Shown here: positions 1,605 to 37,231 of the stretch, in pieces
Layout of the letters: each line of letters opens with the position of its first letter
Numbering within the stretch: the first letter of the stretch is position 1
NCBI GenBank assembly: GCA_051294905.1
Contig: CM119373.1
Coordinates: forward strand, 5,210,001 to 5,274,000
Origin: Botryllus schlosseri
Taxonomy: Eukaryota
DNA: 64,000 nucleotides
Reading direction: 5' to 3'
Translations under genes and position numbers: made by a program
Notes under the pieces: model-generated
Databases searched by the model: none
Seen by the model: only the letters and a program-made list of their open reading frames with translations
What the model was told of the DNA's origin: nothing

Positions 1605-1704
1605 GTGAGCTGTAGTACGAAGCCCCAACGATCGGCAATATAGAATATAGATACTTTTTCCTTCAACACAAATATCGGATATTATGAAGATAATTCTTTC
1701 GCAG

Positions 1705-3302: not shown

Positions 3303-3374
3303 GCCAACATTGTCATATCATGTAATAACATGCGCCATGCCGAACGTGTCAACTAAATATGATTTTCTTTATAG

Positions 3375-10506: not shown

Positions 10507-11198
10507 ACATGGACATTAGGGCTCTTAAAATATGACTTTTTTTCTCAAATCGTTCTGGCTACTTGGTAAAATTGTTAGGTTACCTAATTTAAGCCTAAAC
10601 ACAAAATTTGGTTCAATTCCAGCCAGTAACCGCTTTGCTACAGGAGAAGAAAGTTTCTATTCATTATATAAAAATAAATAGGTAATAAAAATTTGAAAAT
10701 TTTCTGTTCACCCCATGAAAGTGTTAGGCTGTCTATGGAAACGATGCTCACCAAATTTGGTTCAATTCCAACCAGTGGAAGCGGAGATATGGCCGTCGAA
10801 AAATTTGGATTTGAATAAAATAGTATTTACGGTGACCGATTCTTTGTTTACTTATTAAAGTTGTGCTCACCGTAAGTACTATTTTATTAAAATCCAAATT
10901 TTTCGACAGCAATAACTCCGCTTCCACTGGTTGGAATTGGACCAAATTTGGTGAGCATCGTTTCTATAGACAGCCTAACACTTTCATGGGGTTAACAGAA
11001 AATCTTCAAATTTTTTATTATTCATTTTTATATAATAAATAGGAACTTTCTTCTCTTGTAGCAAAGCGGATACTGGCTGGATTTGGAACCATATTTTGTT
11101 TCTAGGCTTAAATTAGGTAACCTAACAATTTTATCAAGTAGGCTAGCCAGTACGATTTGAGAAAAAAAGTCATTTTTGAAGAGCCCTACTGTTCATGA
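10507..11198. mobile_element. Foldback-type element with long (~300 bp) inverted arms
   Basis: About 10507-10815 is the reverse complement of about 10885-11198, e.g. TGTTAGGCTGTCTATGGAAACGATGCTCACCAAATTTGG versus CCAAATTTGGTGAGCATCGTTTCTATAGACAGCCTAACA. Confidence 0.85.
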
Positions 11199-11507
11199 CC
11201 GTCCACGTTTAGAGTTGCATCTCAAAGATGCTAAAATAAGCCTAAATATAATCCAAGCAATACGATCGTCCACTTTGACTGACTGAATTTCTAAAAACAC
11301 CTTGATAGCTTCCACATCTTACGTTTATATATACTGTCTGCTATCGGCACAACAAAGTAGGCCTATTTAAAAATACCAAAACAGATTCAACATACCACAT
11401 CTCTTGCAAACTTCTTTAAATCCTCCTTTGTGGTGAGTTGCTTTGGAATTCTTCTAGGATCAATTCCGATACTGTTTTATCATATACAATCTATGGCGGA
11501 ATAAAAG
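10952..11507 (+). repeat. Left copy of 556-bp direct duplication flanking the LINE
   Basis: Matches 14372-14927; the only difference seen is C at 11472 versus T at 14892. Confidence 0.95.
11300..11359. mobile_element. Tiny Penelope-like terminal fragment with 5' inversion (duplicated at 14720-14779)
   Basis: TCTTACGTTTATATATACTGTCTGCTATCGGCACAACAAAGTA resembles 21518-21560. The preceding CCTTGATAGCTTCCACA is the reverse complement of the TGTGGAAGCTACCAAGG motif near 21625-21640. Confidence 0.6.
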
Positions 11508-14371
11508 CTCAAAAAAATGCACAAGAGATGCACCGAGCAAAAACACCTCTTTGATGATGTGTACCATTACTGGGACTTCCTTAAAAACCAAATGAAGGTC
11601 CAAATAAAGAGATACGGCTACAAGAAAAAAGCAGCCGAAGGACAAAGAATTGAGTCGCTACAAAAACAAATCGTAGAACTCCAGAATAAAGATGATACAA
11701 AAGGAGACGTATACGAGCTAGCTAAAGAGCTCAAAAGCATTGAGCAATAAAAATTCACACGCCAATGTAAACTCCACAAAATCAGAGACATAGAAGAGAA
11801 CGAAAAGCCAACTAGGTACTTCTATCAGAAGCTAAAACAGAGGAAAGAGAAGGTTGCGCTAACCAGTGTGGTAGCACCTTCTGGAACAGCAACCAAGAAC
11901 AAAGCTGAAACGTTAGAAGCAGTCGAAAATTTCTACACTAAACTGTGGGCCAAATCACACCAGGCACAGACTCATGTCCAGAAAGACTACCTGAAAGAAG
12001 TAGAAGGACTAGAAATCACAGAGGAAGAAAAAAAACAGCTAGAATGTCAGGTAGACGAAAACGAGATTAAGAATATCCTCAACCAAATGGACAATGACAA
12101 GTCGCCAGGGTCTGACGGACTATCTAAGGAATTCTACCTGCAATACTGGAATATGATAAAACATGATTTATGTGAGGTAATAAACAATGCCTACCTTTTC
12201 GGTGGATTATGTAGCACCTGGAAAACGGGAATAACGACGATAATTTACAAAAAAGGCCAACCCACAGAATTAAAAAATTGGCGACCTATTACTTTACTAA
12301 ACACAGACTACAAAATACTCACCGGACTGATTGCTAATAGACTAAAACCAATACTACCAAACCTCATTCTTGAAACACAAAAATGTGCAATAAAAGATCG
12401 TCAAATCACGGATATTTTACGAAACACGCAAGCTGCAACAGAATACGCGAAAGAGAAAAAGAAGGAACTCCTGATAGTCAACTTAGATCAGGAAAAAGCT
12501 TTTGACCTGCTAAATCATGAATACCTTTTCAAAATTCTTGAAAGTTATCATATGCCGGAAACATTAATGCGGCTGATTAAACACATCTATAACACCGCAT
12601 CGAGTAGAATTCTGGTAAATGGCGCAATGACACACCCCATAAAACTGGGTAGAGGGATACGGCAGGGGTGTCCTCTGAGCATGGCGCTCTACGCCATTAG
12701 TTGTGACCCCCTAGCCAGGAAAATAACGAATAACGAAAAAATCCAACCCTTCAGAATCGGAAAAGCCACCATAAAAATCCAACAATATGCCGATGACATA
12801 ACTTGCTTCCTTACCAACGAAAAAGACATTGGCCGCATATTCCAGGAATTCAACAAATTCGAAAGAGCAACAGGACAGAAACTAAATGCGGAAAAAACCG
12901 AAATCTTGCATATCAACCAGAATAAGTATTCGAGCCGAAACCCGATTTACGATAATAAGAAAAAACGAAGCATAAAAATATTAGGTCAACACTACGGAAA
13001 AAATCAGATTGAAGAAACCTGGAGCGAGAAAATTGCGAAAATCAAACGAACACTATATGGCTACCGTGATAGAAAACTGACATGGGTAGGAAAGCTTACG
13101 ATCCTGAACTCCCTGGCATCAAGCCAGATCATATATAATGCGAGGGTAATAACAGCACCCAGAGAAATGAAAAAAGAGCTAGAAAAGCTATATTACAACT
13201 TCTTATGGCACCCCCAAAAGATGGAAGCAATAGCCAGACGAACGCTTATTGCAGAAAAAAAGAGAGGGGGGGTCGCAATGCCGGACGTGGAATCAAAGTT
13301 CAAAGCGTGTGAACTTGAAAAAATTGTCGCGCTGAAAAAATTGGATCAACCGAAGGAGATATGGCATCAACATGCCATATACGAAATCGGCACAAAATTG
13401 AAACAAATTAACCCCGTGCTCTATAATAACTCTGAGCCGCATAAATTCCCGACACCCAAAAACTGGGTGGAAAACCTGGAATTAACAAAAAAAATAAAAC
13501 TCACAAACGATGAATGGGAAGTCGCATCTCACAAAACGCTATACAAAGAAGTCAAGAAACTGAAAGAAAACAATCCAAATATTAGAACAAAAAACGGAGA
13601 CGAAATCAACTGGAAAAAAATTTGGCAATCGAAACATATGGGACATAAAGTAATTACCAACGAGGAAATAATTATAAACTACAAAGTAGTCCACGAAGGA
13701 TTCATATTTGGGGCAAAACGGAAAAGCAGAAACTTGACCCATGACAAAGATAATAAACCGCTCAATCTTAATTGCAAATTTTGCAATAACGAAAAAGATG
13801 ACATAAGACACATACTAACAGAATGTAAATATACAAACGAAATTAAACTCCATGTTGAAAGAGCGCTCGGAATAACAATAAACGAAAATAACATACTCTA
13901 CAACCATAAAACGGCGAAAATAATGTGGATAATACTATCCATATTAAAGAAGGTTGTGATAAAATTCAAAATCGCTCTAGATATTGATAATAGAAAAGCA
14001 GGAGAGGAAAAACTTGGAAGAAAGATCCTGGAAAAATTCATTACCAGAATGAAAAGAGTACCAGAAAATGAAAACATCAGCGAAATTATCGCAAAAACTG
14101 ACGGATACCTACAAATTCTGTAGAAATTTTTAAAAGTAAAACTATTGTGATTACAGTGGGGGGAGTAAAACATGAGTATAGCAGTAAAATAGAGAAGCTA
14201 AAAAGAATGAGAGAAACCGTTTTATCAAGTTGAACCATTTAATCACCTAAGTTGGAAAATATAAAAAAATAAAAAATAAAGTGTAATCAAGACCCCGAGC
14301 ACGCGACAGCCCTACACATACGAGAGGGCTGCCGAACGCCGGCGGATACGGGGAGCCGTATAAAAAAAAAA
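11508..14371 (+). mobile_element. 5'-truncated non-LTR retrotransposon, L1/Tx1 group
   Basis: ORF2 remnant, about 240-nt 3' UTR and A10 tail (14362-14371); no endonuclease domain or ORF1; bounded exactly by the 556-bp duplication. Confidence 0.92.
11517..14123 (+). pseudogene. LINE ORF2 reverse transcriptase, N-truncated, one in-frame stop at 11748-11750
   Basis: KSPGSDG, NWRPITLLNTDYKI, LDQEKAFD, GIRQGCPLS, QYADD and C-terminal CKFC-x8-H-x4-C motifs. ORFs 11517 and 11868 are in the same frame, and reading through the TAA gives ENEKPTRYFY. Confidence 0.92.
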
Positions 14372-14927
14372 TGAGCATCGTTTCTATAGACAGCCTAACA
14401 CTTTCATGGGGTTAACAGAAAATCTTCAAATTTTTTATTATTCATTTTTATATAATAAATAGGAACTTTCTTCTCTTGTAGCAAAGCGGATACTGGCTGG
14501 ATTTGGAACCATATTTTGTTTCTAGGCTTAAATTAGGTAACCTAACAATTTTATCAAGTAGGCTAGCCAGTACGATTTGAGAAAAAAAGTCATTTTTGAA
14601 GAGCCCTACTGTTCATGACCGTCCACGTTTAGAGTTGCATCTCAAAGATGCTAAAATAAGCCTAAATATAATCCAAGCAATACGATCGTCCACTTTGACT
14701 GACTGAATTTCTAAAAACACCTTGATAGCTTCCACATCTTACGTTTATATATACTGTCTGCTATCGGCACAACAAAGTAGGCCTATTTAAAAATACCAAA
14801 ACAGATTCAACATACCACATCTCTTGCAAACTTCTTTAAATCCTCCTTTGTGGTGAGTTGCTTTGGAATTCTTCTAGGATCAATTCCGATATTGTTTTAT
14901 CATATACAATCTATGGCGGAATAAAAG
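14372..14927 (+). repeat. Right copy of 556-bp direct duplication
   Basis: Starts immediately after the LINE poly(A) and matches 10952-11507. Confidence 0.95.
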
Positions 14928-17935: not shown

Positions 17936-17999
17936 ATTTTGCAAACGGCTTGTTTCGTCAAAAACTCCTTATGGATATTGTTTATAATCCTAAACAACG
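17936..17999 (+). pseudogene. Orphan duplicate of lectin first (signal-peptide) exon with ATG changed to ATT
   Basis: 64 nt, collinear with 33332-33395; reads ILQTACFVKNSLWILFIILNN; phase-1 donor G|GTAGGT retained. No SUEL exons were found between 18 and 29 kb. Confidence 0.7.
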
Positions 18000-20900
18000 G
18001 TAGGTGAAGAGTGGTTTCTGGTCATGATTACGCAATTTAGACATTAATTCCAGTCCTAGTTTCGTTCTACTCATATATTGCTTCGTTCTTGCTTCATATA
18101 TTACGTGGATATCAACATTGGCACTTATTTAACCTACCTTTGGATGACATGTGACGTCACAATAGTTTACATGCCCAGCTTCCACCACAAAATCCCTCTC
18201 AACCTGCCGATCTCTCGCGCACACCGGCTGACTGCATGGCTCGGGGCTACTCAAGTGAGACCGTAGACACTTCAATACTGAATGCAATCGACGGCAGATG
18301 ATATCATCTGAGCTGACATACACATTGGACGACCTTTTCTGGTGATGTGTGCATATGTAGACATTCTGGGATCACTGAGAAGAATTATTTCGGCCAATTA
18401 TACGTGTTTGTCCAATATTGTGTATCTCAATGCGCAATGTGGTGTCTCAATGGACGATTTCGATTTAGAGCAGAGGTCTCAAACACGCGGCCCGCGGGCC
18501 GCATGCGGCCCGCGAGATCATTTTGAGCGGCCCGCGACGGCATTTTGGATTTCGAAGTATTCGACAATATTTTACCACCAATTCTTGAGAACTTAAAATT
18601 CGCTCTAAAACTACTCCAGAAGCCTGAAACTACTCATCAAACTTCACTATTACATCACTTTCAAAAGTTACCACTCAGTGGAAGATCAACTATTACGTGA
18701 CATTACTTGTTTAATATGGTAAAACATGACCCGTTGATGATTCGTGATTGAAAATTGTGATTTGGACTTGGGCGCGACCCTCTGTAGAATTACTCGTACT
18801 CGTCACGTCAAACGTTACAATCAGAGAAGATTTTGTGACTCGGAATGCCGTGACTTGGTACAACCACGCACGCAACAAACCATGGTGTCCTGTATGGTGT
18901 GGACACAAGCAAATCTCACGGCTCAGTGAAATTGGTTTACGTCACACTTTCCATTTGGTCGAAGGCAATTTGACAGTAATTTTTGTCCGGCTTGTCCTGT
19001 ATTAGCCTAAATTTTATAAAACGGCTATCAATCGAAAGCTACCGCGGTACTGATTGCGAAAATATAAATTTCTTCTGTTTGTGGCCCTGGAACTACCCAA
19101 AATAAGCCTAGAATGTTGCATTGTATGTGAGTTTGGTATTGTGATGCAGCAATGACGTCTGGCAGCAGGCGAGGAGCACCGCAAGCTGCAAGCGTATTGG
19201 CCATCGTTACGCAGGCGATTGAGCACTCTCACTCTCGTGCGCATTTGCTCCTGAGCTGCGCAGACGGCATGGTTGCGTCACAGTACCAAACTCACTTACA
19301 ATGCAACATTTGAGGCTTATTTTGGTGAGTTCCAGGGCCACGAACAGAATAAAATTTATATTTTCGCAATCAGTACCAGACATGGGGTGATTACTTTATG
19401 AATGTAATCGATTACGATTACGATTACTTCTGAATCACGCGATTACGATTACGATTACGATTACAGCAAAATCAGGAAGTAGTCGATTACGATTACGATT
19501 ACATTGGAAAAGTAATCACGATTACTCACGATTACATTTATTTCGCTTCGTAGAACTAGTCTTAGAATATATATTGAAGACAATAAGGATGCGATGAAAA
19601 TACCTAATGAGAGATGACAACTATCTTTATAAATGATACGTCAGTTGATTGTTACGTCATAATGTACCCATTGCCCAGCTCTATAGTGCTGGACGATTCA
19701 TCGCACCCAACGATTTGAATTCTTGCCAGGTTCGTAATTGCCGCACCCCAAACTCCCCAATGGAGTACGGAGCGAGGTCGTAGGAGAATTAAAAGTATTT
19801 CGTAAATCAACATTAATTATATGAAGTATTTCGAGAGATTTCATTCTTCTAGCTCCGCGATTTAATGTCTCTAGATAGCTTGATTTTGAAATGCATACCT
19901 GTCCCCTTAAGACAAGACGGGAATAATTTATAGGCATTTCGGTGCCGGTCATTAACGCGCCAGGACACACCAAAAGTCATATGCAGTTTCGGCCAACTTG
20001 CGACCTCACGAAGTGCGCTACCAAAGAAAGAACTTTACCGACATGTTGGGTACGCCTGTGTGTCCATTATCAATAGCCGCGCAGGGTGGGTGTGACGAAT
20101 ATATAGAGCGTTGTCCTTAGAATCTGAGCGCCACATTACAAATGTCACCCGGGGCCCCCACAGATGAATGAGACATGACAATTTGTGTGTGCGACGCACA
20201 TTGTTCGTCTCTCGTCTCAGGAAAGTTCTTCATTAGTCTTCTACGTTTGGACGACTACAATATACAATATGATTATAGGCTATACTACAGACGAGAGGTC
20301 ACGAATTAACAACATATATTAATTGTAGTTATAACAATATCAGATATTATAGCTATGAATTACGTGCCCCAGATCTACCAGTAAATCTAACCATCGGGGG
20401 CTGAGAGAGGATTATTATTGAATAATCAAAGACAAACGTTAGGAGTGGGGGGGGGGGGGGTGACTTGCCGTTTTGGTCCTGATTCTAGCTACAACCCACG
20501 CTGACATGGTGTATAAGCGTATATCTATGGCGACAGGTCCAAATGTTGACTGAAAAATTGCGAAATAACGATGACGCCCGTTTCAGCCAGACTCATATGA
20601 TAATAAGATAAAGTGAACATAAAATTTGGTGTTTCACTTAATACAGATACTGCAAGCTGCCGTTACGAGAAACGGCAAAGAACGGCTCGGTTATGATAAA
20701 TATCAGCAGCTGTTGATTTTTATTGTTTCGTCGTGGAAATCGTAATGTCTCATTTGACGAGTACAAAATTTCACATCTTTGTTCGATGTACGTACCTAAG
20801 TATGCCAACTTACATAGGCGAGGTCTACTGCTCGCCAAGCAGCAACGGTCAAACTGCTTCAGATAGGCATAACCAAACATAAATACAAATGTTAGTATTT

Positions 20901-21107
20901 GAAAATATAGGCAGAATGGTGATTATTATGCTGCTGCGAGGTAGTTGTGTGTGGAGTGTATTGATAACCTGATATACAGCATGACGGGTGTTCTCACAAC
21001 TACACTACAATGTAGGCCTACATCGAATATCTATATTTTACGTAAGACCTTAGTAGCTTTCACACTCTATTTAACGTCCACTTGCGAATGAATATAACTT
21101 TATTAGT

Positions 21108-21145
21108 TACACGAGCTTTCGGAGCGCTGCTCCTTCATCAGGTGT
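21108..21145 (-). ncRNA. Minimal type-I hammerhead ribozyme, minus-strand copy
   Basis: Reverse complement reads ACAC-CUGAUGA-A-GGAGC-AGC-GCUCC-GAAA-GC-UC-GUGU. Confidence 0.7.
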
Positions 21146-21418
21146 CAAAGCGAAAGTAACGCAAAAAGAGCAACGCAAAAATATTTTGAATTTGAACATA
21201 TGCGTATTATGACATCATAGCGAATGAGAAATTCTAGATACTGAAGTCGCGTACTCTATGACGTCATAGAGACAAATATCAAGTTTTGATTTGAAATGCA
21301 AATAGTGAGTTGTGTGCCTAAAATCGGATTGGATAAGGTGTTTATATGCTAATTTGAAAAGAACAAAAAGTGCTAAGTCAAGCATTCATGGTGTAGTGAG
21401 ACATACATCCTCTATCTA

Positions 21419-21457
21419 TGCACCTGATGAAGGAGCAGCGCTCCGAAAGCTCGTGTA
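21419..21457 (+). ncRNA. Minimal type-I hammerhead ribozyme
   Basis: Stem I UGCAC/GUGUA; core CUGAUGA 21424-21430; stem II GGAGC/GCUCC; GAAA 21445-21448; palindromic AGCU stem III; predicted cleavage after UC at 21452. Confidence 0.75.
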
Positions 21458-22320
21458 ACTAATAAAGTTATATTCATTCGCAAGTGGACGTTAAATAGAG
21501 TGTGAAAGCTACTAAGGTCTTACGTTTATATATATCGTCTGCTATCGGCGCAACCAAGTATATTTTACGTGTAACTAATAAAGTTATATTTATTCGCAAG
21601 TTGACGTTAAATAGGATGTGGATTGTGGAAGCTACCAAGGTATTAGTTTTATATATATCGTCTGCTATCGGCGCAACATAGCATTCATTCTATTTTATGT
21701 GTGTAGCTTACACAATGACGAACACAGCTAATACTTCTGACGTAATAATGAGCAGCGACGATTGGAAGTCAGACGTTTGTGCTATCACTGACCTCAACCT
21801 GGTATAATATCTCTTCCTTGTTCACGAATGTTCAGTTTATGTCATAGTTCTTGTACGTACAGATTAAAAGTAATCGTTCTTCCTCTAAGAAATCGATTAA
21901 ATATAGGAAGTAGTCGATTACGATTACGATTACTTCGGATTTTTCTCGAATGTAATCGATTGCGATTACGATTAATTGAAAATGCTGTAATCGTCGTAAT
22001 CGATTACGATTACTAATCGCGATTACCCCATGTCTGATCAGTACCGTGGTAGCTTTCCATTGATCAAAAATTACTGCCAAATTGCCTTTGACCAAATGGA
22101 AAGTGTGACAAAGACAAATTTCACTGAGCCGTGAGATTTACTTGTGTCCAAACCATATAGGACACTTTGAACAAACTATCAAACTGGTAGGAGAAATAGT
22201 AAAATATCAAAAGGTCGTAGCTTGCGTTGTGTAGCTTATTTAGATATCAAAGCATGTAGGTATGGCAACCGACATTGGCATTATGTCGCCCCTTTGATGT
22301 ATAGTTGGTTACATCCCGTG

Positions 22321-23410
22321 CAGTAACGTGCGGTCCAATGAGGCAGGTGAGGCAGTGCCTCACCTGTCGTCAGAGCGAGTAAGTTAAAATTGTGAAAACC
22401 CTTCATGAGTCGATGATTATTGATATTTTACGTCGATGTTCATAAATAACTGAATTTGAACATTTTTTAACACCACATCATCAGTTTGCATGATTATTAT
22501 TCAAAAATAAAGCGCGAAAGGAGAGTTGAGGCACAGGTGAGGCATGGGCGGGTCGTGCCTCACCTGCGACAAAACAATTCATCATAAATAGCTCGAAATT
22601 CATAACAACCGGTATGAATCAAATGATATCGTCACAATGATTCCGAAAATCCAAATATTAACAGTGTCAGACCACCAGAACCCCCTCAAAATCGCCAAGG
22701 AAGGTGACATTCGGCTTTATTACAGACAATGCCATCGCTGAGAAACAATGGCCAGGCGAGGCACAAACGAATCTGCCTCATGCACTATTCGCTAACAATT
22801 GGACAATTGCAGCACAGTGAAACGCGCTATCGATTTCGGTATACAACAGTTTTGACTGTCTTCTAGGAAATATATAGTAGCGACGGCCAATACGCAATGC
22901 GGAGCAAATACATTCCCTTACTTATGTAGCTCTTATTTATTTAACGTTAAATTGTGGTATGTGATAGCTACTTGCATAGGCGGCATTGTCGTTGCTTTAT
23001 GCTTCGAATAATCTATACCGGTATTTGAAGAGATAGCAATTATTATCCGTCCAAACTTGCCCATTTAGCACAATAGCGACCATATATATATATATATCGG
23101 CTTTCAATTAAATAAAAGGGCAAAAGAAAACAGGAAACAAAGGAACACCAAGATATCAGTTTTGGGCCCTTATCAAGCGCCTCCAGCGTGGGCGGTCGTG
23201 GGCGTCCAGTCCTACATGTATTATTGTATTGTATAATGTGTAATTGCAACAGCTATCAGTGTGCAAAGAAAATGCTCTCTATACCCTCTGCTGTTGTTAT
23301 TCACATTTAAGATCTCTACATCAGGTAGGCTACCGTACTTTACGTGCGTGCGTGTTTGTGTGTGTGTGTGTGGGGGGGGGGGTCCGTGCCTCACCAGCCG
23401 CACATCACTG
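22321..23410. mobile_element. hAT-type MITE with TGAGGCA/TGCCTCA motifs; contains a short RTE 3' end at about 23085-23210
   Basis: TIR CAGTAACGTGCGG/CCGCACATCACTG; 8-bp TSD ATCCCGTG (22313-22320, 23411-23418). Confidence 0.85.
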
Positions 23411-25047
23411 ATCCCGTGTCATCTTGAGTATCTTTATTTATGTTATTGTCGCCAATTTAATGCGTGGCGAGTATTAACTAGTCGTAGACTACGCTTCACA
23501 GCTGTAACACCAACGGATTCTTCACAGATTGCACATGTCTATTGTTATTGCACAGATCCATTATGTTCAAGTTGTTATTGATCTGTTCCAACATTCGAAG
23601 GTAAAATCAAACGCTGATTCTATTTGACTTCCGTAATGACATGTCAATATAGCCTAGTTATCAGGAGTAGACCTATGTTCGAAACCCGGAAATAAGGCCT
23701 ACTTTGAAATACATTGAATTCCCCTATTATTGGTGGTGCGGCCCGCGGCGCCATCAAAAATAGAAAATTGGCCCGCGAGCACATTTGAGTTTGAGACCTC
23801 TGTCTAAGACAATCAAAACGAAAATGAGTGAGTTTGGATCACAATTGTGATTTTAGAGTATGACTTTCAATGCTGTACTGGGAAAAAACGATTCGTGCGT
23901 ATGTTTGGTATCGTCCTCTATATGCGCAGTTAGTTGCAAATCATTCAGAACTTCGGTCTCTACTCATATAGTCCAAAGCAATACAAAAAGCGGAAAGTTG
24001 AAGATGAAAGCTGCTGCAATCAATAAATAATCAACTTACAGGTGTGCCTACTGCCGTTCCGGCGTCGATGGTAACGCAATACGTATTACTTGTCATAATA
24101 TGACATTATTGTTATGAATTCGTTGCTGCAATTCAAAACACCATTTGAATCCAGACATCCGAATTATAGACACAGCTTATCAAATTATGAGGTGCCAAAT
24201 AAATCAACGGAATTATGTTCGAGACAACAGGCAATTATGTTGATGTCGTCCTCACAAAAGAACGTGAAAAAGGCAAGTTGAATACAGTAAGCCCGACGGT
24301 GAAACTCATTCAAAGGTGACATGTTGGTGTCAGAACTGTGTGTTATTCTTAAGTTTAACCAGACGCAGAGTCAAGATATCTATAAGCCGAACGTTACTCA
24401 CGTATTCAAATTCCCATCCTATCAACCTTCTTTCATCCCTTATTTTGACAAATTGATTCAGGATGGCAAGTTTATGAAATCTTGGTAATATTTCTGACGC
24501 GCGTGCGTTATCATCAAATCAACATTTAAATTGTTTTAATATGCATTCATACGTACATTGTATATGCATTATCTCCACGTCTTCAGTTATAACTTTAAAT
24601 AAGGGGTCCTGAACGTATGGGTGGCGAAGGTTATAATTTTGGGTCGCTATGGCATCCGAGCGATCTTCTAATATGTAAAACTTGTTGAATTTCTTTTACC
24701 TACTTTAGGCCAATCAGCGAGACGCGTTGAAAAGTAATCACAACTACTTGGCTTGATCATATGAATGTGCCGACCGTTGTATTGGTTTGAATCCACCACA
24801 AGATTTGTCTGACCATGGTTTCTCCGAAAAACACTGTCGGGGCTGCTTTAGTGTAGGGTTATGTAGTGTGCAACAATCGGGTGCTGGTCTATGAGAGAGA
24901 GGACTTGCGAGGCCAACCCCTACAGCGCCAGAACACATGAAGACATTACGTTTTGGCCAGCATACCGATAGGTGAAGTACGGTGACAAAATATTGCCGGC
25001 GATAAAACCAAAATGACCGTCACTGATTGGCTAATACCTACGATATT

Positions 25048-25522
25048 AATATATATATATATATATATATAAATATCGACTTTCAATTAAATAATTACAT
25101 AAAAGGGCAAAAGAAAACAGGAAACAAAAGAACATCAAGATAATCCATTTTGGGCCCTTGTTAAGCGCCTCCACCGTGGGCGGTCGTGGGCGTCTTCGAG
25201 CGAAAGCCCTCGTTGCGCTAGCTCGGTCTCTATTGTCGAGCGCCATGTGGTTCTACTCCGGCCACCTCTGCGCCATGGCTCCGTCGGAGTGTGGTTGATG
25301 ATGGCGGCGGCTGGTTGATCGTCTTGATGCTGCACTAGATGACCGATTAGGCGGAAGCGTCGTTCAGCAGCCAGCAAACGGCATGGGACCGTTTTTGTAA
25401 GTTTGTGTAGAGCATTGGTGGATATGTGCTCCGGGTGGTGGATGCCGAGTGCGTATCGGAGGAGTGCATCGTAGTTGGCGTTGAGTGTCTTAGCCCTATT
25501 CTTAGTCTTAGTCTTAGTCTTA
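25048..25522 (-). mobile_element. RTE-clade LINE 3' fragment with (TA)n tail
   Basis: RRFRLIGHL...RRGGRSRTTW...AHDRPRWR resembles an RTE ORF C-terminus; the same 3' end occurs at 23085-23210; TATTAATAT at both flanks; (CTTAGT)n at the 5' junction. Confidence 0.7.
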
Positions 25523-26679
25523 TTAATATGACCGGTCGTCGAAATGGTTGGTACCGAATAGTCTGAGTAGAATGTCAGTACAAGTGCGACCCGTGGTCAA
25601 ATAATACACTCCAATTTGAAATCGTGTGAGTCAGACATGTTCAAGTTCATGGAGCTGCATTGCGTACGACTGCTGTCTGCGCGTTCTTTATATTGTATAC
25701 ATGCCTGTAAAAAGTAGCATAGTTGTATTTAAAATGCCTAAAATGTGATGTGTGAGGCTTGGGTCCCGAGAAGCGACTAAAACTCGGATTTATGTCTCAG
25801 TCAAAATGGTTGAAGAACCACTGCTTTATATCATCGCATAAAAGCTTGAGAACCACTGGTCTACGTCACAGTTTTTCAGACAATGGGCCGTTCACATCGG
25901 TAGGCCTATAAAGTAGGTTACAAAAGGTCAAATGTCAAATGATAAGTTCACCGACAATGCAAGCATCTATGGTACAAACGAAATGCAGGTTGCAAACTTT
26001 TTTTTGACTATGTGAACAAGTTAGACAAGTTTTACCTAACGCTACCATTTTGACAAAATTTTGACTTATTTTGACATCTCAAAAAGACATCACCGTACGC
26101 ATCACGAATCATATGTATGAGTTGAGTGTATGTCCTGAGTCTTGAGTTCCTGAAAACACCGTTTGAGAACCACTGATATACCTACTACGTGTGCATAATT
26201 CGCTATGCACCGACGAAGTAGGCTAATACTTGTCACAATGAGCAGCGGGGTTTGAAAACCCAACGTTTCTGCTATCAATAACCTGCTATAATATCGCATT
26301 ATATTTTATAGATTTTGTTTTATCATCTCCTAGTACTTCTTAAAGTTAAAAGTGATCGGTCTTTTACAAAGAAATCGATTAGATATGCGAAATATTCGAT
26401 TTGGATTACGATTACTTCGGATTCTTTCGAATATATTTGATTGATGTTACGATTACTTGAAATTGCTGTAATTGTCGTAATCGATCACGATTACTAATCA
26501 CGTCTACCCCATATCTGCTCGGTATATAACCTCTAATTTCCATATCCACTAAGCAGCATGTGATAACGATGTAATTCACTGCTTCCAATTCAGAAGTAAA
26601 ACTGTACGTCGCAGAATTCATTCCACATTTGTATTCTCAGCTCTAAATCAGTCTAGTTTAGTCGTCCAAATCTGTCGGC

Positions 26680-27261
26680 ACTGTCGTAGTCGCGTGTATG
26701 GCTTCGAAGTATCAAAAGTTGTTCACAAATATTTTTCCAATAGTCTGCCTACTGTGTTTGATGACTTTTTCATACCTGCTAAACATGTCCATTCCCATTA
26801 CACGAGATCCTCGTCTAAAAGAAACATCTACTTACCCCCACCCAATAGCAACCTAACTAAGAGATCTATCGACTACTCGGGACCTATCATCTGGAATGCA
26901 TTACCACCACATATCCGTGAATTGCCTTATAATAGATTCAAAAAAGCCCTACTTGATCACCTCTTGTCGTTACACTAACACTGTTGCCCTACCTCGCCCA
27001 GACATTGCTTCATTGATCATTTGCCACCATTGTTTGATTTTTTTTCTATTTTCCTTTAACTAAACATTTCTTTACAGCAAGACTGTTCAGAGTCAAGTGT
27101 ACCTGTTTGATGCTGGTGTGATCAGACTAGATGACCTTCACGGTCTTATCGATCATTAATATCTAATACCGAATACTGTGCACGCATATTTTCTGTACCA
27201 CCATCACTGCCGTTTGTTATGTATTTTAGTTCGATGAAAATAAAGACTCTCTCTCTCTCTC
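26680..27261 (+). mobile_element. CR1/L2-type LINE 3' fragment
   Basis: FDDFF...HSHYTRSS...SIDYSGPIIWNALP...FKK resembles the 7173-7454 peptide; 3' UTR ends AATAAA-G-A(CT)n. Confidence 0.8.
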
Positions 27262-28499
27262 ATTGACAGAAATAATAATAATGTAAACTCAACACTAAGC
27301 GGCACTTCATGTACTTGGAATTGTTTCAAGCAACTCCGTTGATGAGTGGAAATCTTAACCAGTCGTCCCTTAATGGGTATACATGAAATTCTGCCGTTTC
27401 ACGTAATGTGTTGCGGAGCTTACAATCTACAATATGTGAGGCGTACAGTAATATGAAACAGTCTAGCGGATGTTTCATTTAATATTCTCCGACACCCAGA
27501 TGTTATCCGGCGAACCTGGACACTCCAGAAAGTGTGGAAATGGCGACATAACAATGCTGTTATCTCTGAATGACTCTATTGCAGTTGTTGCGAGAACCGT
27601 GTACATACCAATTCATATCTAACCCCGCGTATACGCAATGCCACTTACGCTTATTATGTATTCATACTTACTATTATTTGTCTCCACGCACATGAATCCT
27701 AGCGCAAGCCATCGTTCGCTGAAAATCGGGGCTAATCACTTGCTACTCGATCATGCGGTAGCATACTGAACCAGGCAGGACATTACTCATAGCCTAGATT
27801 AAATATCTCAATTATAGTCACTATGCAATAACTACGGCAGTCATCCTGCAGTCAATAGTGATTTATCGACTAAGGTGAGAATGTCAGATGGTGACTTATT
27901 GTGTAGCGGAATTCTCATGTAGCGAATGCACATGAAATTATAATAAGCAGTCTACACAGGCAGGTGTCAGATTATCTGAAGATGAATACATAACACGTAC
28001 CTAACCGCTTTATACGTGATATGTACACTATTTGAATAAGAGGCGAGATACCAGAGATTGGCTGGGGAGACGCTATGGTCAATCAATTTATTTGGCTACG
28101 GGTACAGCAGGACAATATGACTTTCAACTTGCTATAATTCTAATCACATTTCATACGCGTAGTTATGAAGATAGTATTAAGAAAGCCCGTGCAGTTATCA
28201 ACCGCTCGAATTGGATTCATCAATTATGAATTCCAGCGGCGTACATAGTTACTTTATAATTACACCAGTCAAATCCATCAGACTCATCAATTCATCAACT
28301 CTAGACTCCAGCAGACCGGAGGTACCCGACGTCAACAGTATAACACAGTTGTTCTCAAACAGTTGGCACGCCCCCCTTGGGGGAGTGGAAGCATCTGAAG
28401 GGGGGCGCGGGCGCCGTCGTAAAGAAAGCTTTTTCGGATGTGGTGAAGTACAAAATGGAATGATATCCCTACATCAAATCATCTGCACCAGGTGGACCA

Positions 28500-29260
28500 T
28501 GGTGACAATTAAATTGATATTACGACCTTTGGTGCGAAAAGAATTCCAACAATTGGATTCCGTATCGAAAATCACAAATGTGTCTTCGATTTTAGCGGCG
28601 GTATAAGGTTATTTTACTACAAGAGGAGAAGAGATTACGCCTTAAATATATTAGCTAAAATAAGCCACAATGGTGACACTATAGCTTCACCGTCAATATG
28701 CCCATACAATATATTATTGAAACTAAATTATACGGAGCAAATTGCGGTTTTCATCAATTCAATGAAGATAGCCTACGAAAAAGAAGAGAGTAAAAGTGTG
28801 TTGTTATATATCATATCAGCGCAAATATTCCATGTCTCATTAAATAGCACGTTTGTGAAAAGGCTCTTTATGTCGAAAGAGCCTAGAAAATTATATGAAG
28901 CGCATAGCTGTGAACGTCGCATCTCATCAGCAAAAGTAAATAAATCGCGTATACGCAGTGGGGCCCGTACAATGCCCAAGCGGTACACTTAAGTCGATCA
29001 ACCACTTCGCTTTCTTATGTTGTGCTGACTGAGTCATGCTGATTATATGTGCGAATGGCTCATCGTCTTTATGCTATTTTGTAGTCCGTAATCCGTACAT
29101 CCGCGGTCGTTGAGGGCTAACAGACCTGACGGAGGTAAATGTTTCTGTCGATATTATATCGTCATTTTTCAACTTCCGAAGGCTTCGTTGTAACGCGCAT
29201 CAAATGTTGGGGTATTGTTATGCTCCTGTTATGGATTATATACCGTTTCAATAGCGAGAC
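28500..29260 (-). pseudogene. Decayed Penelope-like reverse transcriptase fragment
   Basis: Minus-strand remnants PRMYGL..K*HKD..P, SFDIKSLFTNV, FSFNN...IDGEAIVSPL...LANIF and EDTF, with stops and frameshifts. Confidence 0.75.
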
Positions 29261-30102
29261 ACACTCAGCGAAGATCGAAACAATTGTGGCGGTACTTTGA
29301 AAAACGAGATAAGTTTTTGCATTTTTTTTAAATATCTGGGACAGTAATAAGGTGACAAAAATAAGCTTTTGATTACTCTCCTAATTTGAAAAATACCTCC
29401 GTGGCATACCAGAAGGTCATGTGGGATCAGTGACAATGCTATATCTAAAGCGTGCAATATAATAATACACGTTGGTTTACTGCAGTGCTTTTCAACGTTT
29501 TTGAGCTCCATCCGCACTTTTTTTTGGAAAATAAATTTCATTCACACAAACCAACCGAAAATTGTTATAATAAAAAGAATATGAAGATACTTAACGATAT
29601 TGAGTTCGGATGTGCAACAAATATTACATACATATTAACAGACAGCCCTGCTACCGTGTCGACCTGAAATTATACCCTTTGCGGTCCATAGTTTAATGAT
29701 CCTTGAAGGAGTAAAAATTTGCGTTACAGTAACTTGCAAATGTGAGTCTTTTATGATGGGATTTACTACTATCCTTGTGCCTCACGCTAATCGAATTGTT
29801 ATTACAAAAATATGATGATTGTTCAGCGAAAGAATGCAGAAAGTCATTATGACGTCTCTTTCCCAGCCTGTCGCCGGCTCAAACGGGCTGATACACTGTA
29901 TGTCTGCTACTACACTCGCTTTCGAACCAGGCGTTTCGTTACGTAATATGCATAGTGTACGAATATTAATTCACTACGGTTTGTGAGCGACAAAGTTTAT
30001 TGTTAAAGCTACGGTCGGTGGTGAGTGGTAAGTCAAACAAGTTTTTAAAATTGCATCGCAACTACAAAAGTTGAAGACACGCTGCTTTTAGATATTCTAT
30101 AG

Positions 30103-31641
30103 CAGTGGTTCTTAACCTTGCCACCAGCGCCCCCCAGGGGGCGCTGGTGAACTTGAAGGGGGGCGGAAACGCTCAGGGGGCGATATGGGGGGCGCTGGGC
30201 TCAGGGGGGCGGTATGGGGGGGCGCTGGAGAAAAATGGCTTCGCAGTAGATGATGTGGTGATAGGACATATCCTTAATGAGTATTCAGAGCAAATTAACA
30301 CCGAAAACGTCGTTACATATAGCCTTCAAAATACATATAGGTTTAATTGTCCATGAACGCCTAAATGACTGACACCGAATGTTCCTGTCTTGGCAATCAG
30401 AACCCCAGAAGACGAATTCCATCTGGCAGGTAAAAATTATATGTCAGTAAGGAAATATCAATCTGAAATCGTTTGCGTCTTTTAGTTTAGTACGATTGGG
30501 CGACAGGTATATTCCTGTTGGACGATATCCCCGTTGAGCGATTCTATATTTTTTGATATTGCAGACAGGGGGTCACGAAATAACATCATGCAACGAAGTC
30601 ATACCAACGGGTTCGCCCGCCCGAATATGTTTAATTATTAGTAACGGGTCCTACAGTTTCCAAGAAACCTCACAATGTTCGCTTTAAGTTTTGATGAGTC
30701 TGCGCACACTCAACAACTCACTGCGCTGACCCTTGGACAACAGTGCGTAACGACTAAAATAAGGTAATAACTCCGGATTTGTTGTGCGCAACGTAGATTT
30801 TCTGTGTGCAGAGACCGTGTCAGCACTGCGCGCGTGCGCAGCTTGGAGGGAACATTGCACCTCACTTAGCTCTATACCGGTAAATGTGTTTACGTGAGCA
30901 GAGAGAGGATAAAAATTGATCTCAATTTACATGTAATTCCCGATGATATTGACCAATTCAATCATTAATTAGTGAAATTTTTCGCACTTCGCGCGAATAG
31001 GCGAGAATAGCTGCCTCAGTAAATGGACACGCAATGTAGATACCTAATAGGCTATCAGCAAATAGCGGACAGCCTAGTGGGGGTCTGGGAGGGAAGTCCC
31101 CCGGAAGTTTGGTTTATCACCCGATGGGGGCCCAGGACCAACGTCTTTTGTTTGGGGGGGGGGCTGTTACGGCCCTGGTAACGAATAATTGTACCTGCGA
31201 GCACGCCCGAATATGTTTAAATAATAATTACGTGCCCTGTATTTTCCTATACAACAGCTCACTCAGTGCTACTGGTAAATCTGATTACGTGGGCTGAGAG
31301 GATAAAAAGTTTATATGGCGACTTATATATGTAATTATCACCTATCCATTCATGTATTATGGAAAAGTTTGGTACTTAGGGCGACCAGGCCACACAAACT
31401 TTGCTGACCATCAAATCACGATATGGGGTTCGTGGGGCGAAGCCCTTAGAAGTTCGGTTTATCACGCTATGGGTGCGCAAGGCAATCGTTTTTAGGGGGG
31501 TTAACGAAGTGCTGTTACGGCCCTCCCTCTTACTCATTGTCTTTATTACATTCCTTGAAATATGAAGTTGGGGGGGGGGGGCGCTGGAGCACAATAATTT
31601 TTGAAAGGGGGCGCTGGAAGAAAAAAGGTTAAGAACCACTG
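30103..31641. mobile_element. hAT-type MITE with GGGGGCG arrays carrying captured sequence
   Basis: TIR CAGTGGTTCTTAACCTT/AAGGTTAAGAACCACTG; TSD TTCTATAG/TTCTGTAA (6 of 8 match); nested CAATGTTC MITE at about 30673-30857. Confidence 0.8.
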
Positions 31642-31957
31642 TTCTGTAAGGTTTATTTCAATTATTACACGTCAGAAAATTTAACAATTATTTACGATTT
31701 TCATCAGCACTCATCCCTGGATTTTCATTCGCACCGTTCGCACCACCTTCGTCATTGGCACTGCAATTTTTTTTCATTCGCACGAGTGCGAACCGTCACA
31801 CAGGCTCTGGTTTACTCCATTCGGGTGTAAGTGAATATATATAATTTCCATTCAACTTCTCTTACTTATGAGTGATCTATTGAGAGATTTGCATTATTGA
31901 TCTCGTCTTTGTGTTCGAATGGCCGTCCCTTCGGCGCAACTTAAATTTGTCTTACAG

Positions 31958-32634
31958 CAGTGTTTCCATTTTTTTGAGCTGCCGCCCCCTGGACAACGAA
32001 TAAAGCTTGATAATTGGAACAGTTCACGTGTGACAAAATTTCGTTGAAATACGGTGTCATTTTCGCCTTTATCAGGTTTCATCATTACTAAGAACGGATA
32101 TATATTCTACTCAATTTTTTTTGAAAATATGCCCGTCAAGTAGAAGATATATCGTTTGTCGCAACGTGAATGCCGTGTCGAAGGCAATGGTCGCAGCAAT
32201 GTGGAAAATCCATGATCGTCTGAAACAGAGATTAAAATGACGGAAGACAGTTTATTTTAAAAAGCCACCACACCTTACAGCGAGCCATCAACAACTGCTC
32301 AAATACTTCGTAGTTCTCACAGCACACACTTTTTTGCGATTCTGTCTACCGCTAAATTAGTCCAGTGATGAGCAGGATCAACGTTGTCAAGTAACAATGG
32401 ACTGTTTTGGTACAGCTGAATAAATATACGGACCCTATATACCCTAAATTGCCCTCATTGAATCGATTTTGCATTTTTACTGCATATTTAGCTGCTGTAT
32501 TTATCAATTGTTTCAACACTACGTAGCAGTTGCCTTCTTAACCTACACCACCCCCACTTTGTCTCAGCGCCCCCAATCGGCCAATTCATTGCCGAAGACC
32601 CTGGGGGTGCTGGCGCCCACTTCGGGAACCAATG
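31958..32634. mobile_element. hAT-type MITE
   Basis: CAGTGTTTCC/GGAACCAATG ends; TSD TCTTACAG/TCTTAGAT. The paralogous site near 5915 is empty. Confidence 0.7.
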
Positions 32635-33331: not shown

Positions 33332-33395
33332 ATGTTGGAAACGGCTTTTGTCGTCACTAATTTCTTATGGATGTTGTTTATTTTCCGATACGCCG
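33332..33395 (+). CDS. Lectin gene 2 exon 1 (signal peptide)
   Basis: AAGATG start; hydrophobic MLETAFVVTNFLWMLFIFRYA; consensus phase-1 donor G|GTAAGT. It joins exon 2 in frame to give RYAGVEG, a plausible cleavage site. Linkage across the ~10.9-kb intron is inferred. Confidence 0.7.
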
Positions 33396-36300
33396 GTAAG
33401 TGAAGAGTGGTTTCTGGTCATTATTAATCGTCACCTAACTTTTTTGTATATAAATTACTGTCCTAGTCCTGAGGTTGGTAGCGTATAAAGATAGCGATGT
33501 TGACTTTTCGAGAAAACTGTAATTAATAGCAATAGCATAGCTTATATGACCATTGTCCATGTGTGCAAATCAACTTTAGTCACTTAATTGTCGGAGATGA
33601 CATGTTTGCTATATATTTTTAACCGTAGGCCTATGTCTGAAATAGTCGGGGAGTATCTAAATATTCGTTCTGTATTCGAATAGCGCTTTGATCCACGAAT
33701 CTTAGCTAGATAGTTAGATTATCGCGTTTAATTACATCGCCTGTTTAATCTACAGATTGCGTGATTTCATCAGATGCAAATGAAAATCAATGCTTTGTAA
33801 GTACAATTCGATTTCCAATTTTGCAGTCAACGATACAGCAGCAGCATTGCACATGAATGCGGAGATTAGTGATACTATAAAGCACGTGGCGAATAACATA
33901 AATTAAAGTTCAGATATCCAAAATTTTATGTCGTAGGTGGTGGCAATAATCGCAATTTTAGAGATTTTATAGGTTCAAAGGCGTTTTTCGTTGCATTCGT
34001 GATGGCGATAGTTCCGAAATTGCAACTTATTGTCCTGAACTATAATCGGGGAGCGGTGAGATACTACATTATATTAGGCGACGCAATTAGATACTCGGAT
34101 GCAGATCTATATTATGAAAGATCCGATTTATGTCCGAATTTCCGATTGACGAAGAATTAACAAAATTATATCCAACAGAAAAACCAACCTATATTTTTCA
34201 ACATTACATATTTAGGTTTGGCCAATTTGTTTTAGATAAATGACGTTGTTAAGCACCTAATCTTCAAATGTGTTACTTGTAACAGGATATATCAAGTAAG
34301 TTCATTGCCGTTTCGTTTGACTATTCAGTTGGAAAGTGAGATGACCACAGCCTGCATGATTCTTTATAAGTTCCGTCAATTATTTTGCTGTTGCCTGGTA
34401 GCCTAATGCTGATTGACGTACATGAAAAAAAAACTTCATTTTAACGAAATCTCCACTTATGAAGAATTCAAGTAATTATTACGCATCATTGTACAAATAA
34501 TTAAAATTTATTATCTACTCTAAAACGTCCGTCACATTCCACGAATTGACTACACAAGAATCAAAACAGTTAACTTAACCATTTGGGTGTCTGCGAAACT
34601 CTCTCGGAAACTCTCATTAGTCATTAGTCATTTTATGTAAATCGCGGAGATGCATATAGCCACCTACGATTAACCGTTAAACGTATGCGAGTCCTCGAAC
34701 AGTATACTTTCAAAACCATCAATAAAAATCAGTGTTCACTTTCGACTTCCACATGAACTAAAGTCTTGACATTTCTTTTAAATCTCCTACGTATAACCAA
34801 CTATACATTTATTGCAATATTTGCATTACCTCATCCACTTACGTTGCAACACTGACTACTTTGACCATCTAGGTTGTCCATGAAATGTTCATTCATTGTC
34901 ACACGCCCGCTTCACTATCGGCATAGACCAGGACTCGGCCCGCGACTGGATTTTGGGCGGCGCGCAGATAGTTTCCGTACATACGTGATAATGTGGCCCA
35001 CGCCCAGAGTCTGCCACAATTCCCCACTATTTGCTTACGACGTCAAAATATAGTGCCGGTAGGTCATTTTTGAGTCCTTTGTTTTCTTTCTGTTCTTTGA
35101 TTCTTTATTTCCGGTTTTAGTCACGTGACAAGCATGTTATGTTCCGTCACAATAGGCCTTTAAGATTTTTCCTTCAATCTCATGCCTTGCCTCAAGCTGG
35201 TAAAATAGAGCAAAGTGAAATTCGGGTGCATTAGCAAGGGCAGAAGTGACAAAAGTAATAGTGATTGTTTAATGTTCTTCAGTTCTTCGTTTACTCTGTG
35301 TGTGTACTGTGTACATTCTTTGTTTACAGGTAAAATTGACTAGGAATTGACATTAACAAGACAAAGCTGTGTTCCAATCTGATGTTGATTGATGTTCACA
35401 TGCAGTCTATATAAAGGGTTACTACGTCGTAGATGCAGCCAGAGTTCAAAGAACTTGTTGACAACTTTGATGGACCACATAGATGCCTCATTGACTTCGA
35501 ATAGTATTGACTTACATTACGCTACCAAATTACATAAATACTGTTTTTGGTCTCTATGTTATAAACCTAAGGTTTACATTAAATACGATGTATTCCTTGT
35601 ATGGCAGATAAATACCCGATTAATGTATCGATTCAGGAAAGCGGCCCGCCAAGTAATTCATTTTCTTATATCTAGCCCGCTGACAGGAGAAGTTGCCCGC
35701 CCGTAACGTAGACGCCCTTTTCAAAATGGTCCGGCATGAATTTGAGTTTGTTTAATACGCGTGCACAATGACTCGAGTACAAGTCGATTCAACACAAAAA
35801 TTGATTCGAGTCGAGTCAAGTGATTCATCGCATTTGAAAAAATGACTCGAGTCAAGTCGAGTCACCATGAAATCGCGACTCGAGTCACTTAAAACCCGGA
35901 AAGAAGGCCCGAGGAATCAAAATCCATGCAAATAGACACACAAAAAAAATTTACCTCGATTTACCGCGAAATGTCTGGAAGCAGGGTGGCCAGCCACTTG
36001 GCAGTAATATAACATTACCGTCACTCAATGTAAATTCAACTTACACCCGTCCGGCAATCCAGCTTTACATACCAGACGGTAATGTTACAGTCACATCTGG
36101 TATATTCAATCTACATTCTCTCCTGTACATTTACGAGCGAGACTGTAATTTTACCGCCTACCTAGTATCTACAACCCTACATGCTGTCCTTTGTAAATCA
36201 GATTACATGACAGCTTATAAATTCACATGCATCCATTCCATACCTATCCCAAAGCAACGCGATGCCAATATCCCGCAAAAGTTTCTTCACGCTCTAAAAA

Positions 36301-36715
36301 CGACATTGGGGCAACTGTATAATATATAACAGTGTATATTCATTCATGATTCATGATGAAAAAGTATTGCTGCTGGAGGTCTAATTCTTCTTTAGGAGGA
36401 ATGCAAATATAGCACAAGTGGTCCCAAGAAAAGGTGAATTAATTCCACCACCGGATAAACTTCCAATTGTGTCTTTTTCTCGTCTTCATTCCTTCTGTGT
36501 GACTAGTATCTTGCAGTTCCACTAAAAAGAACTCATGCGTAAGTCGCTATATTAAGCAAAGTTCCTAACCTAGACATGACATTACAATAACTACTAAGAC
36601 AAATAGGCTAACAAAAATATACAAATTTTTGAAGTACCGGTACTGGTACATTGTGTGATAACGGCTCCGCCTTTTACATGATATAGCAGAGATTCATGAC
36701 TTACTTTATCTAATG

Positions 36716-37231
36716 CAGCGGTTCTCAACCTTTTGGACATGCGCCACCCTCGGCGATGGCCAAAAAGTTTGCGTCCCCCTGCACTTATCGTCACGTCAAA
36801 AACAGCACATCATCTAAAACAGAGATGGGCAACCTTTTTGCTAATCACGGTCACATTTCAATTACTTAAGTAGGGCAAGGTCGCATTACAGGGCATAGCT
36901 GCCGCATAGCAACCTATATTGCATCTAAGTCTGTCTTAAGCAGTGCAGTTCGCCAGCTATTACCAACAGCTACCCAGCGCACTGAGCTTCAGGATACTGC
37001 CAAATCTATGAAGTAATGAATGACTTACACGCGTGAATTGCTCTAAATCTTAAAAGAATATCAAAAATTTGCTCAAATGAAGTTGAGTGCGACTGCTGGA
37101 GTTTGAATTTGGCGAGCGTTCTTAAATACGAAATAGGTTTCTTCTTCTGAAAATGGTTGTGAAACACATGTTTAGTCAGAATTCAAACAGACTTAGTCAA
37201 TTTCTCGCGCCCCGCAGGTTGAGAACCACTG
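36716..37231. mobile_element. hAT-type MITE
   Basis: TIR CAGCGGTTCTCAACC/GGTTGAGAACCACTG; TSD ATCTAATG on both sides. Confidence 0.9.

Follow-up and report, generated by a model that had tools for sequence, protein, structure and literature searches.

Opposite-strand minimal hammerhead motifs in a probable Penelope-like element insertion of Botryllus schlosseri

The question raised by this locus is what a pair of hammerhead ribozyme motifs, carried on opposite strands by perfectly inverted arms, represents in the genome of Botryllus schlosseri, and whether it acts on the transcripts of its host. The window analyzed here is the whole 64,000-nucleotide stretch of contig CM119373.1 in which the locus lies, and all positions are those of the window.

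Hammerhead motifs and their relatives

Two inverted arms of 105 nt each (21040-21144 and 21421-21525) are 100% complementary and separated by 276 nt, and each arm reads stem I - CUGAUGA - A - GGAGC(AGC)GCUCC - GAAA - GC - UC - stem I. The hammerhead cores lie at 21424 on the plus strand and at 21141 on the minus strand, within a left motif in its native context (21109..21145, minus strand) and a right motif (21419..21457, plus strand) whose two outer stem I pairs are made of junction bases. Stem I is 5 bp long in the right hammerhead and 4 bp in the left, stem II is 5 bp long and closed by a 3-nt loop, and in stem III two bases separate GAAA from UC, giving the palindrome AGCU. Each is a minimal type-I hammerhead with one extra A after the CUGAUGA box (after A9), predicted to cut after 21452 (plus) or after 21113 (minus). 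Set against the text and Fig. S3 of PMC4209133 as far as these are available, the characters of minimal hammerheads (min-HHRs) are present, namely the core CUGANGA...GAAA...UH with stems I and II intact, an extra base between 9 and 10.1, a G10.1-C11.1 pair and a palindromic 15.2-16.2; the left motif fits the consensus of that figure. An AATAAA, a putative poly(A) signal, stands behind each motif (21461..21466, plus strand; 21099..21104, minus strand, read from 21104) and starts 8 nt past the predicted cut on both strands. The initial annotation had claimed inverted arms with paired opposite-strand hammerheads and an AATAAA within 10 nt behind each, and this description proved exact.

A strict descriptor, requiring the core, a stem II of at least 4 bp and a stem I of at least 3 bp, matched twice in the 64 kb, at the two arm hammerheads with no third; as one sequence copied, these two hits are counted as one event. 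Across 150 dinucleotide shuffles, the three stringencies applied returned 0.047, 0.020 and 0.013 hits per window. A looser pattern, which had returned 19 overlapping matches with 3 of 100 shuffles equally high, was uninformative and was replaced by the strict descriptor. The covariance-model search that had been proposed as a check of the motif came back empty, with no hammerhead family of Rfam matching 18000-32000 at E<=5, and the fold of the 46-nt motif is unexceptional in stability (z -1.31). Both outcomes are expected because the motif is so small.

Metagenome contigs scanned for the core with stem II yielded 23 loci, and viral contigs yielded 0 matches. Three loci were left out before stem I was counted, two of them (L011 and L012) as chance matches in bacterial genes and one (L015) as cut by its contig end. 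Stem I forms at least 4 bp in 11 of the remaining 20 loci, most of which belong to one family, or in 13 of 22 when both copies of the window are counted as well, compared to a control mean of 0.58 and a maximum of 4 in 2000 draws. An AATAAA follows within 50 nt of the motif in 5 of the 23 loci, matches to proteins of Penelope-like elements (PLEs; tblastn, E<=1e-4) occur in 3 of the 23, and no second hammerhead copy was seen within any of them. Another hammerhead family, unrelated to this one, is dispersed in animal-like contigs (L002, L004-L006, L008-L010, L013, L014, L016, L017, L019-L023); its stem II is identical, its stem III is an AACGUU palindrome and its stem I is different.

The closest motif to that of the window is found in L007 and its twin L003, which have the same stem III. 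Formal pair counts over the window copies and these two loci (three distinct sequences) found compensation in 1 of 10 pairs, no more than shuffles give (195 of 500). In L007 the motif lies about 750 nt after a same-strand open reading frame (ORF) with a C-x4-C-x2-C linker and a GIY-YIG-type motif, which has a weak match to the C-terminal region of PLE proteins (E 3e-5 to 1e-4) and scores 0.97 in the atlas with eukaryotic GIY-YIG clusters, the family being present on 23-34% of cluster members. L003 carries a reverse transcriptase (RT) fragment head to head with the pLTR that it shares with L007 (E 1e-17). Pfam gave no relevant match for the ORFs of L007 and L015 or for the read-through RT pieces, and the PLE identity of the RT pieces and of L007 comes from homologues and the atlas. 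Outside the search pattern, L007 resembles the window element in its tail, in the downstream sequence and in an upstream 13-mer (9, 17 and 31 of 2000 shuffles as high, respectively), in the same order; continuous homology between the spacer and L007 was rejected, as global alignment shows none. For the linkage of the hammerhead to PLE genes, as initially annotated, the support is a relative with a GIY-YIG ORF or RT fragment, and the likeness of L007 to the window element outside the pattern is modest. From this relative, and not from an ORF of the family's own, the clade of the window family is probably Neptune-like.

Anatomy of the insertion and its family

Four public sequencing runs (X1, DNA; X13; X23 and X24, single-cell RNA with the same species label) were compared with 21146-21760. 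Summed contig depth in X1, which is a depth and not a copy number, is 2770-56197 over 21146-21565 and 200-300 at 21566-21628, a step that places spacer, arm and tail in one abundant family whose copies can roughly be put at hundreds to thousands. Loose ends at 21561 with mixed flanks (agreement 0.47) in 35 X1 contigs, together with loose ends in 12 X23 reads, fix the 3' end of the family at 21560/21561. Loose ends before 21421 in 39 X1 contigs read like the left end of the spacer on the other strand, and one X13 sequence (record 9, 1479 nt) contains tail, hammerhead and spacer as one run, with 0 differences over 134 nt and 5 over 274 nt, before departing from the reference at 21419 and extending about 1070 nt further. 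These sequences together indicate that the native copy is the minus strand of 21419-21040 and that the plus-strand 21421-21561 is a short inverted one, the 276-nt "spacer" between the arms being itself element sequence on the minus strand.

The insertion is therefore best described from its two copies. The long one, in native orientation, is a 380-nt copy of the element 3' end (pLTR; 21040..21419, minus strand) that is 5'-truncated at 21419 and has no tail and, by six-frame translation, no ORF. A single junction base (21420), to either side of which X13 record 9 aligns (to 21419 and from 21421), separates it from the short inverted copy (21421..21561, plus strand; 141 nt including the tail), which is 5'-truncated 3 nt before the hammerhead core. 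This right copy extends past the arm by 36 nt (21526..21561, plus strand), a PLE "tail" as defined in the available text of PMC8557442 and PMC3846280, present at one end only. An exact 12-mer, TATATTTTACGT, has just two occurrences in the window, 21032-21043 and 21559-21570. These are the left and right copies of a 12-bp target-site duplication (TSD; plus strand), the last 4 nt of the left copy being the end of the left arm and the first 3 nt of the right copy the end of the tail; a common 12-mer arose in 28 of 200,000 random pairs of 30-nt windows. A 5'-truncated copy with an adjoining inverted 5'-truncated copy, a tail at one end, a short TSD at an AT-rich site and a hammerhead in the pLTR are characters of an endonuclease-positive (EN+) PLE insertion, and all of them are present. 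The ATG inside the hammerhead core opens a reading frame closed by a stop after 11 codons, ruling out an ORF that starts at this ATG, as in the Anolis element PAc. An 18-bp palindrome around TGACGTCA (21254..21271), a 13-nt part of which is also found in L007 upstream of its hammerhead, is a possible internal promoter element.

At two spacer positions, 21204 and 21271, the locus has bases almost absent from other copies (about 0.7% private divergence), and with only these two near-private positions the insertion is young. Among the 40 variants listed for the family, four fall in the motif: 21437, 21438 and 21439, all in loop II (X1 depths 7497 of 12234 at 21437 and 3092 of 12286 at 21439), and a C to T at 21450 that leaves the stem III palindrome able to pair by wobble. 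None of those listed lies in the core, stem I or stem II, compared to 13 in 21459-21536, and none is compensatory within the family; the pattern is one of conservation, not covariation. Outside the locus, a 43-nt remnant of the family comprising little beyond the tail lies at 11317-11359 and 14737-14779, inside a 556-bp repeat, and reads or contigs with the flanks of this remnant occur in X13 and X24.

The young insertion sits at the 5' junction of an older, diverged family copy without a hammerhead core (21568..21684, plus strand; BLAST 86% over 110 columns, with 11 mismatches and a 7-nt insertion), whose own 5' junction falls inside a 5-nt microhomology spanning the predicted cleavage site. 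Both interrupt a host element of the GATTAC-repeat family that is whole at 1016-1330. Its left piece (21020..21031, plus strand) has a 15-mer in common with the uninterrupted copy at 1016, and its right piece (21685..22043, plus strand) is 75-79% like 1052-1306 and 26222-26524 and opens with a degenerate second target copy, representing an older duplication; loose ends before 21707 in all four runs match the left piece. Pairing 20450-21968 with 100-1306 as one segmental duplication, which would have supplied an empty site, was rejected, as what they have in common is two separate repeats. The host repeat, found at 1016-1330, 19377-19510, 21020-22043 and 26183-26524, is abundant and non-coding with internal (CGATTA)n arrays, has received two insertions of the PLE family at one spot, and is transcribed on both strands in X23 and X24.

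With this anatomy, the central claim of the initial annotation, that the inverted pLTR pieces and their minimal hammerheads make up a young, non-coding insertion of a PLE, is supported by the target duplication, the tail, the multi-copy family and the PLE-linked relative. Its outline of the element was right for the arms and hammerheads but included neither the 12-bp duplication nor the 36-nt tail on one side, and it overlooked both the older copy (21568-21684) and the element nature of the spacer. The decayed PLE RT that it had placed at 28.5-29.3 kb is real (28498..29193, minus strand; tblastn E 3e-41 to P0006, a protein with RVT_1 and GIY-YIG domains, at 46-59% identity), with stops and frameshifts that mark a separate, older insertion. 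It was rejected as the partner of the hammerhead insertion, being heavily decayed and 7 kb off, and P0006, its best full-length match, is without the Cys linker found in L007; the decayed RT is probably of Penelope/Poseidon type and unrelated to the hammerhead insertion.

Other elements lie elsewhere in the window. A 5'-truncated LINE has an RVT_1 and zf-RVT ORF at 11751-14123, with one in-frame stop just upstream, and ends in A10 at 14371. It is flanked, exactly at the TSD position, by the 556-bp direct repeat (10952-11507 and 14372-14927; 1 mismatch), which would be unusually long for a TSD, a tandem duplication or an assembly effect being alternatives. A fold-back element at 10508-11141 has several inverted arms nested in one another, among them one of 149 nt at 94%, and its right arm lies in the 556-bp duplication. 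Decayed non-LTR retrotransposon fragments occur at 7173-8431 (minus), 25135-25596 (minus) and 26553-26978 (plus), with an RVT_1 match for 7778-8431 and the others judged by eye.

Proposed insertion route, competing readings and possible effect on the host

We consider it very probable that the locus is a young, 5'-truncated, non-coding insertion of an endonuclease-positive PLE, probably Neptune-like, made in trans by an autonomous member. In the proposed mechanism, a model that rests on one locus, a GIY-YIG endonuclease would nick the top and bottom strands of an AT-rich target with a 12-nt stagger, and each target 3' end would then prime reverse transcription. Synthesis would start from either of two points that lie 36 nt apart at the element 3' end, one including the tail and the other excluding it. 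The tail-less end has 4 nt in common with the top-strand target end, and the tail end has 3 nt in common with the bottom-strand one. The two cDNAs would stop after 141 and 380 nt and be joined head to head, and two RNA templates, or the two pLTRs of one tandem RNA, would be needed because the copies overlap in sequence. The hammerheads would be passengers of the pLTR; in a tandem element that is active, they probably dimerize, or rely on the PLE protein, to process the transcript.

That the hammerhead pattern is instead a chance match within an unrelated repeat is barely conceivable. The silence of Rfam, the ordinary stability of the fold and the lack of covariation among the listed variants fit this reading, but the strict descriptor is seldom matched in shuffled windows, stem I, which lies outside the search pattern, forms in over half of the counted metagenome loci with differing sequences, and variation is confined to loop II, so that a chance match is largely refuted. 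It is also very unlikely that the two arms and the sequence between them form one fixed, non-autonomous unit of a MITE-like or retrozyme-like kind, which would move as a single piece and have the 105-bp arms for terminal inverted repeats. Perfect arms, the missing ORF and high copy number would suit such a unit, and PLE-derived non-autonomous hammerhead repeats are known (10.64898/2026.07.22.740005, available part); however, the arms are not terminal, as the right copy continues for 36 nt, X13 record 9 parts from the reference at the point of inversion with about 1070 nt still to run, depth along the unit is very uneven and rises toward the 3' end, and no tandem array of hammerhead units exists in the window. 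The 36 nt past the arm and X13 record 9 equally speak against classing the insertion as a MITE, which calls for terminal inverted repeats and a fixed unit. An appreciable though minor chance attaches to a different route for the same element, in which fold-back self-priming, switching on one template or a later local duplication-inversion takes the place of priming by the two nicked strands. Self-priming is the explanation given in the available text of PMC3846280 for head-to-head inversions whose junctions are palindromic, and the arms are 100% identical while the spacer has two near-private variants. Against this, the junction here is without a palindrome, each end of the element has 3-4 nt in common with a target 3' end, the whole insertion lies between the copies of a clean 12-bp duplication, and zero arm differences are unsurprising at about 0.7% private divergence. 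This alternative concerns the route only and is compatible with PLE identity.

With the element read as a PLE insertion, its possible effect on the host depends on folding and transcription. RNA reading through the locus on either strand is predicted to fold arm on arm into a 105-bp hairpin, with p 0.00 for stems I and II. Plus-strand RNA starting at 21300 is predicted to form stem II (p 0.97-0.98) and not stem I, and in a short local context stem I reaches p=0.72-0.75 and stem II p=0.98-0.99. No dimer can form in cis because the motifs are on opposite strands, and an intermolecular AGCU helix is worth only -2.5 kcal/mol, the predicted homodimer not being the active fold. In X23 and X24, of which 3-4 in 100 of each run's reads were examined, spacer reads are nearly all of one strand, the element sense, showing that the family is transcribed. 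Reads at least 99% alike to this locus number 2 of 129 and 1 of 104, the reads coming almost wholly from other copies. Read beginnings or ends do not pile up in either run, a weak test of cleavage; sense depth is level over the cut site (8 and 8 at 21450 and 21459 in X23, 10 and 11 in X24), and the loose ends listed for these runs include none with poly(A) behind AATAAA. Of the antisense reads that cover the hammerhead, the majority (23 of 29 in X23) trace to a single different genomic copy, which is changed at 21438 and 21450, has a foreign flank before 21423 and is embedded antisense in some host transcript.

The host sequence of interest is an orphan lectin first exon that had been noted about 3 kb upstream. 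This exon (about 17936-17999) is real as sequence, being 84% like the exon region at 33.3 kb, but it has ATT where its paralogue at 33332 has ATG, and no second exon partner was found between 1.9 and 45 kb. Three-exon SUEL lectin genes form a cluster on the plus strand that spans the regions 1698-3560, 17936-17999, 33332-47344 and 58309-60490, with exon 2 at 1698, 45079 and 58309, the last exon at 3367 and 47170, and a broken last exon at 59992-60488 split by an insertion.

The initial annotation had proposed that the insertion puts a potential self-cleavage and polyadenylation cassette on both strands, a claim that is not supported, with both motifs buried in the predicted hairpin, no dimer in cis, and neither RNA pile-ups nor poly(A) ends listed. 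We regard it as highly improbable that the insertion cuts and polyadenylates host transcripts, such as that of the lectin exon, in both directions. Both motifs and both AATAAA signals are intact, RNA from 21300 keeps stem II, an AATAAA also lies close behind the motif in some metagenome loci, and a related PLE hammerhead cleaves once protein is added (PMC11167929, available text). These points are outweighed by the read-through folds, by the absence of stem I even with a start at 21300, by the weak AGCU helix and inactive homodimer fold, by the lack of cleavage in min-HHR monomers and the little seen in dimers (PMC4209133, available text), by the level sense depth without read-end pile-ups, and by a lectin exon with neither ATG nor a nearby second exon. 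Judged by equilibrium folding, and with RNA reads mostly of other copies, the hammerheads at this locus are most likely inert because read-through RNA would form the 105-bp hairpin, and they probably do not act on the host.

Whether the DNA of the family keeps a record of cleavage elsewhere is a separate matter. It is doubtful, although conceivable, that family 5' junctions at the cut site record hammerhead cleavage in vivo, with the 3' product being reverse-transcribed and inserted. The cases behind this reading are n=2, the older copy at 21568 and one X1 contig in which 21421 is linked to 21568 of the opposite strand, an inverted copy that starts where the older one does. Against it, X1 depth climbs smoothly across the motif (12286 at 21439 to 41778 at 21478), no loose end at 21453 is among those listed, and microhomology alone can fix the 5' junction of the older copy. 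In the available sections of PMC4209133 and PMC11167929 no in vivo evidence of PLE hammerhead cleavage is reported, and searches of the open-licence literature listed no report of a 5'-junction peak as such evidence. A genome-wide 5'-junction peak at the cut base would be DNA evidence of PLE hammerhead cleavage in vivo, and in a family of such youth and abundance, with transcripts in public runs, a genome-wide 5'-junction count would be a cheap test. The locus alone matters little, as such fragments number thousands in animal genomes; it is a clean example that combines both RT start points, a 12-bp duplication with a 3-4 nt primer match per end, and re-insertion at an earlier copy.

Comparison with known systems

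The motif is closest in form to the min-HHRs of PMC4209133, which, according to the available text, number thousands per genome, include opposite-strand pairs 100-700 bp apart, and are inactive as monomers with low activity as dimers; dimer cleavage of PLE hammerheads is also the subject of a study summarized in the accessible part of PMC6765202. The window motif and these min-HHRs have in common the core CUGANGA, the extra base at 9/10.1, the G10.1-C11.1 pair, the order GAAA-N-palindrome-NU-H, a short stem I, U-rich upstream and AU-rich downstream sequence, and the two-base G-C stem III insert of several Fig. S3 rows, several of which also have AATAAA close behind the motif. The sequence of the window family falls outside their table as available, and its stem II of 5 bp with a 3-nt loop is within their range.

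In its arrangement the insertion resembles Pen2a of Adineta vaga, for which the available text of PMC3846280 describes an inverted pLTR, a 31-bp tail and a TSD of 9-10 bp; inverted truncated PLE copies with a one-sided tail of 30-40 bp are described in PMC8557442, and PLE insertion into or beside earlier copies in PMC6765202, as far as these sources are available. Head-to-head pLTR pieces, a one-end tail of 30-40 nt, a short TSD, an AT-rich target and a position beside an earlier copy are found in both (the scheme being that of PMC8557442), whereas the window copy has no ORF, a TSD of 12 bp rather than 8-10 bp, and no palindrome at the inversion junction. A Cys linker before GIY-YIG is the mark of Neptune in the accessible part of PMC8557442, and L007 and L003, through which the window family is compared to this clade, have nearly the same hammerhead with a similar tail and upstream 13-mer, the L007 ORF carrying the linker; the similarity is in short islands only, and the suggested clade of the window family comes from these two loci.

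The Anolis Poseidon element PAc provides the nearest biochemical parallel. In the available text of PMC11167929, both target strands are nicked and extended in vitro at AT-rich targets, two RT start sites bound the tail, and the PAc hammerhead cleaves only with protein, with no RNA-seq reads ending at the cut. The AT-rich target and the minimal hammerhead in the pLTR are common to PAc and the window insertion, and the two RT start sites and double nick of PAc mirror the route proposed here; unlike the window element, whose core ATG leads into an early stop, PAc has an ORF that starts inside the hammerhead, and it belongs to a different clade. Animal non-LTR retrozymes are likewise non-coding, PLE-derived and equipped with type-I hammerheads, but they consist of head-to-tail tandem units each with a hammerhead, whereas the window insertion is head to head and truncated. 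In the sense used in the available part of 10.64898/2026.07.22.740005, the window insertion is not a retrozyme, as tandem hammerhead units are absent and its only tandem neighbor is without a core. With no sign of a host job, the family is a further PLE case, and its arrangement is an ordinary one that has already been described.
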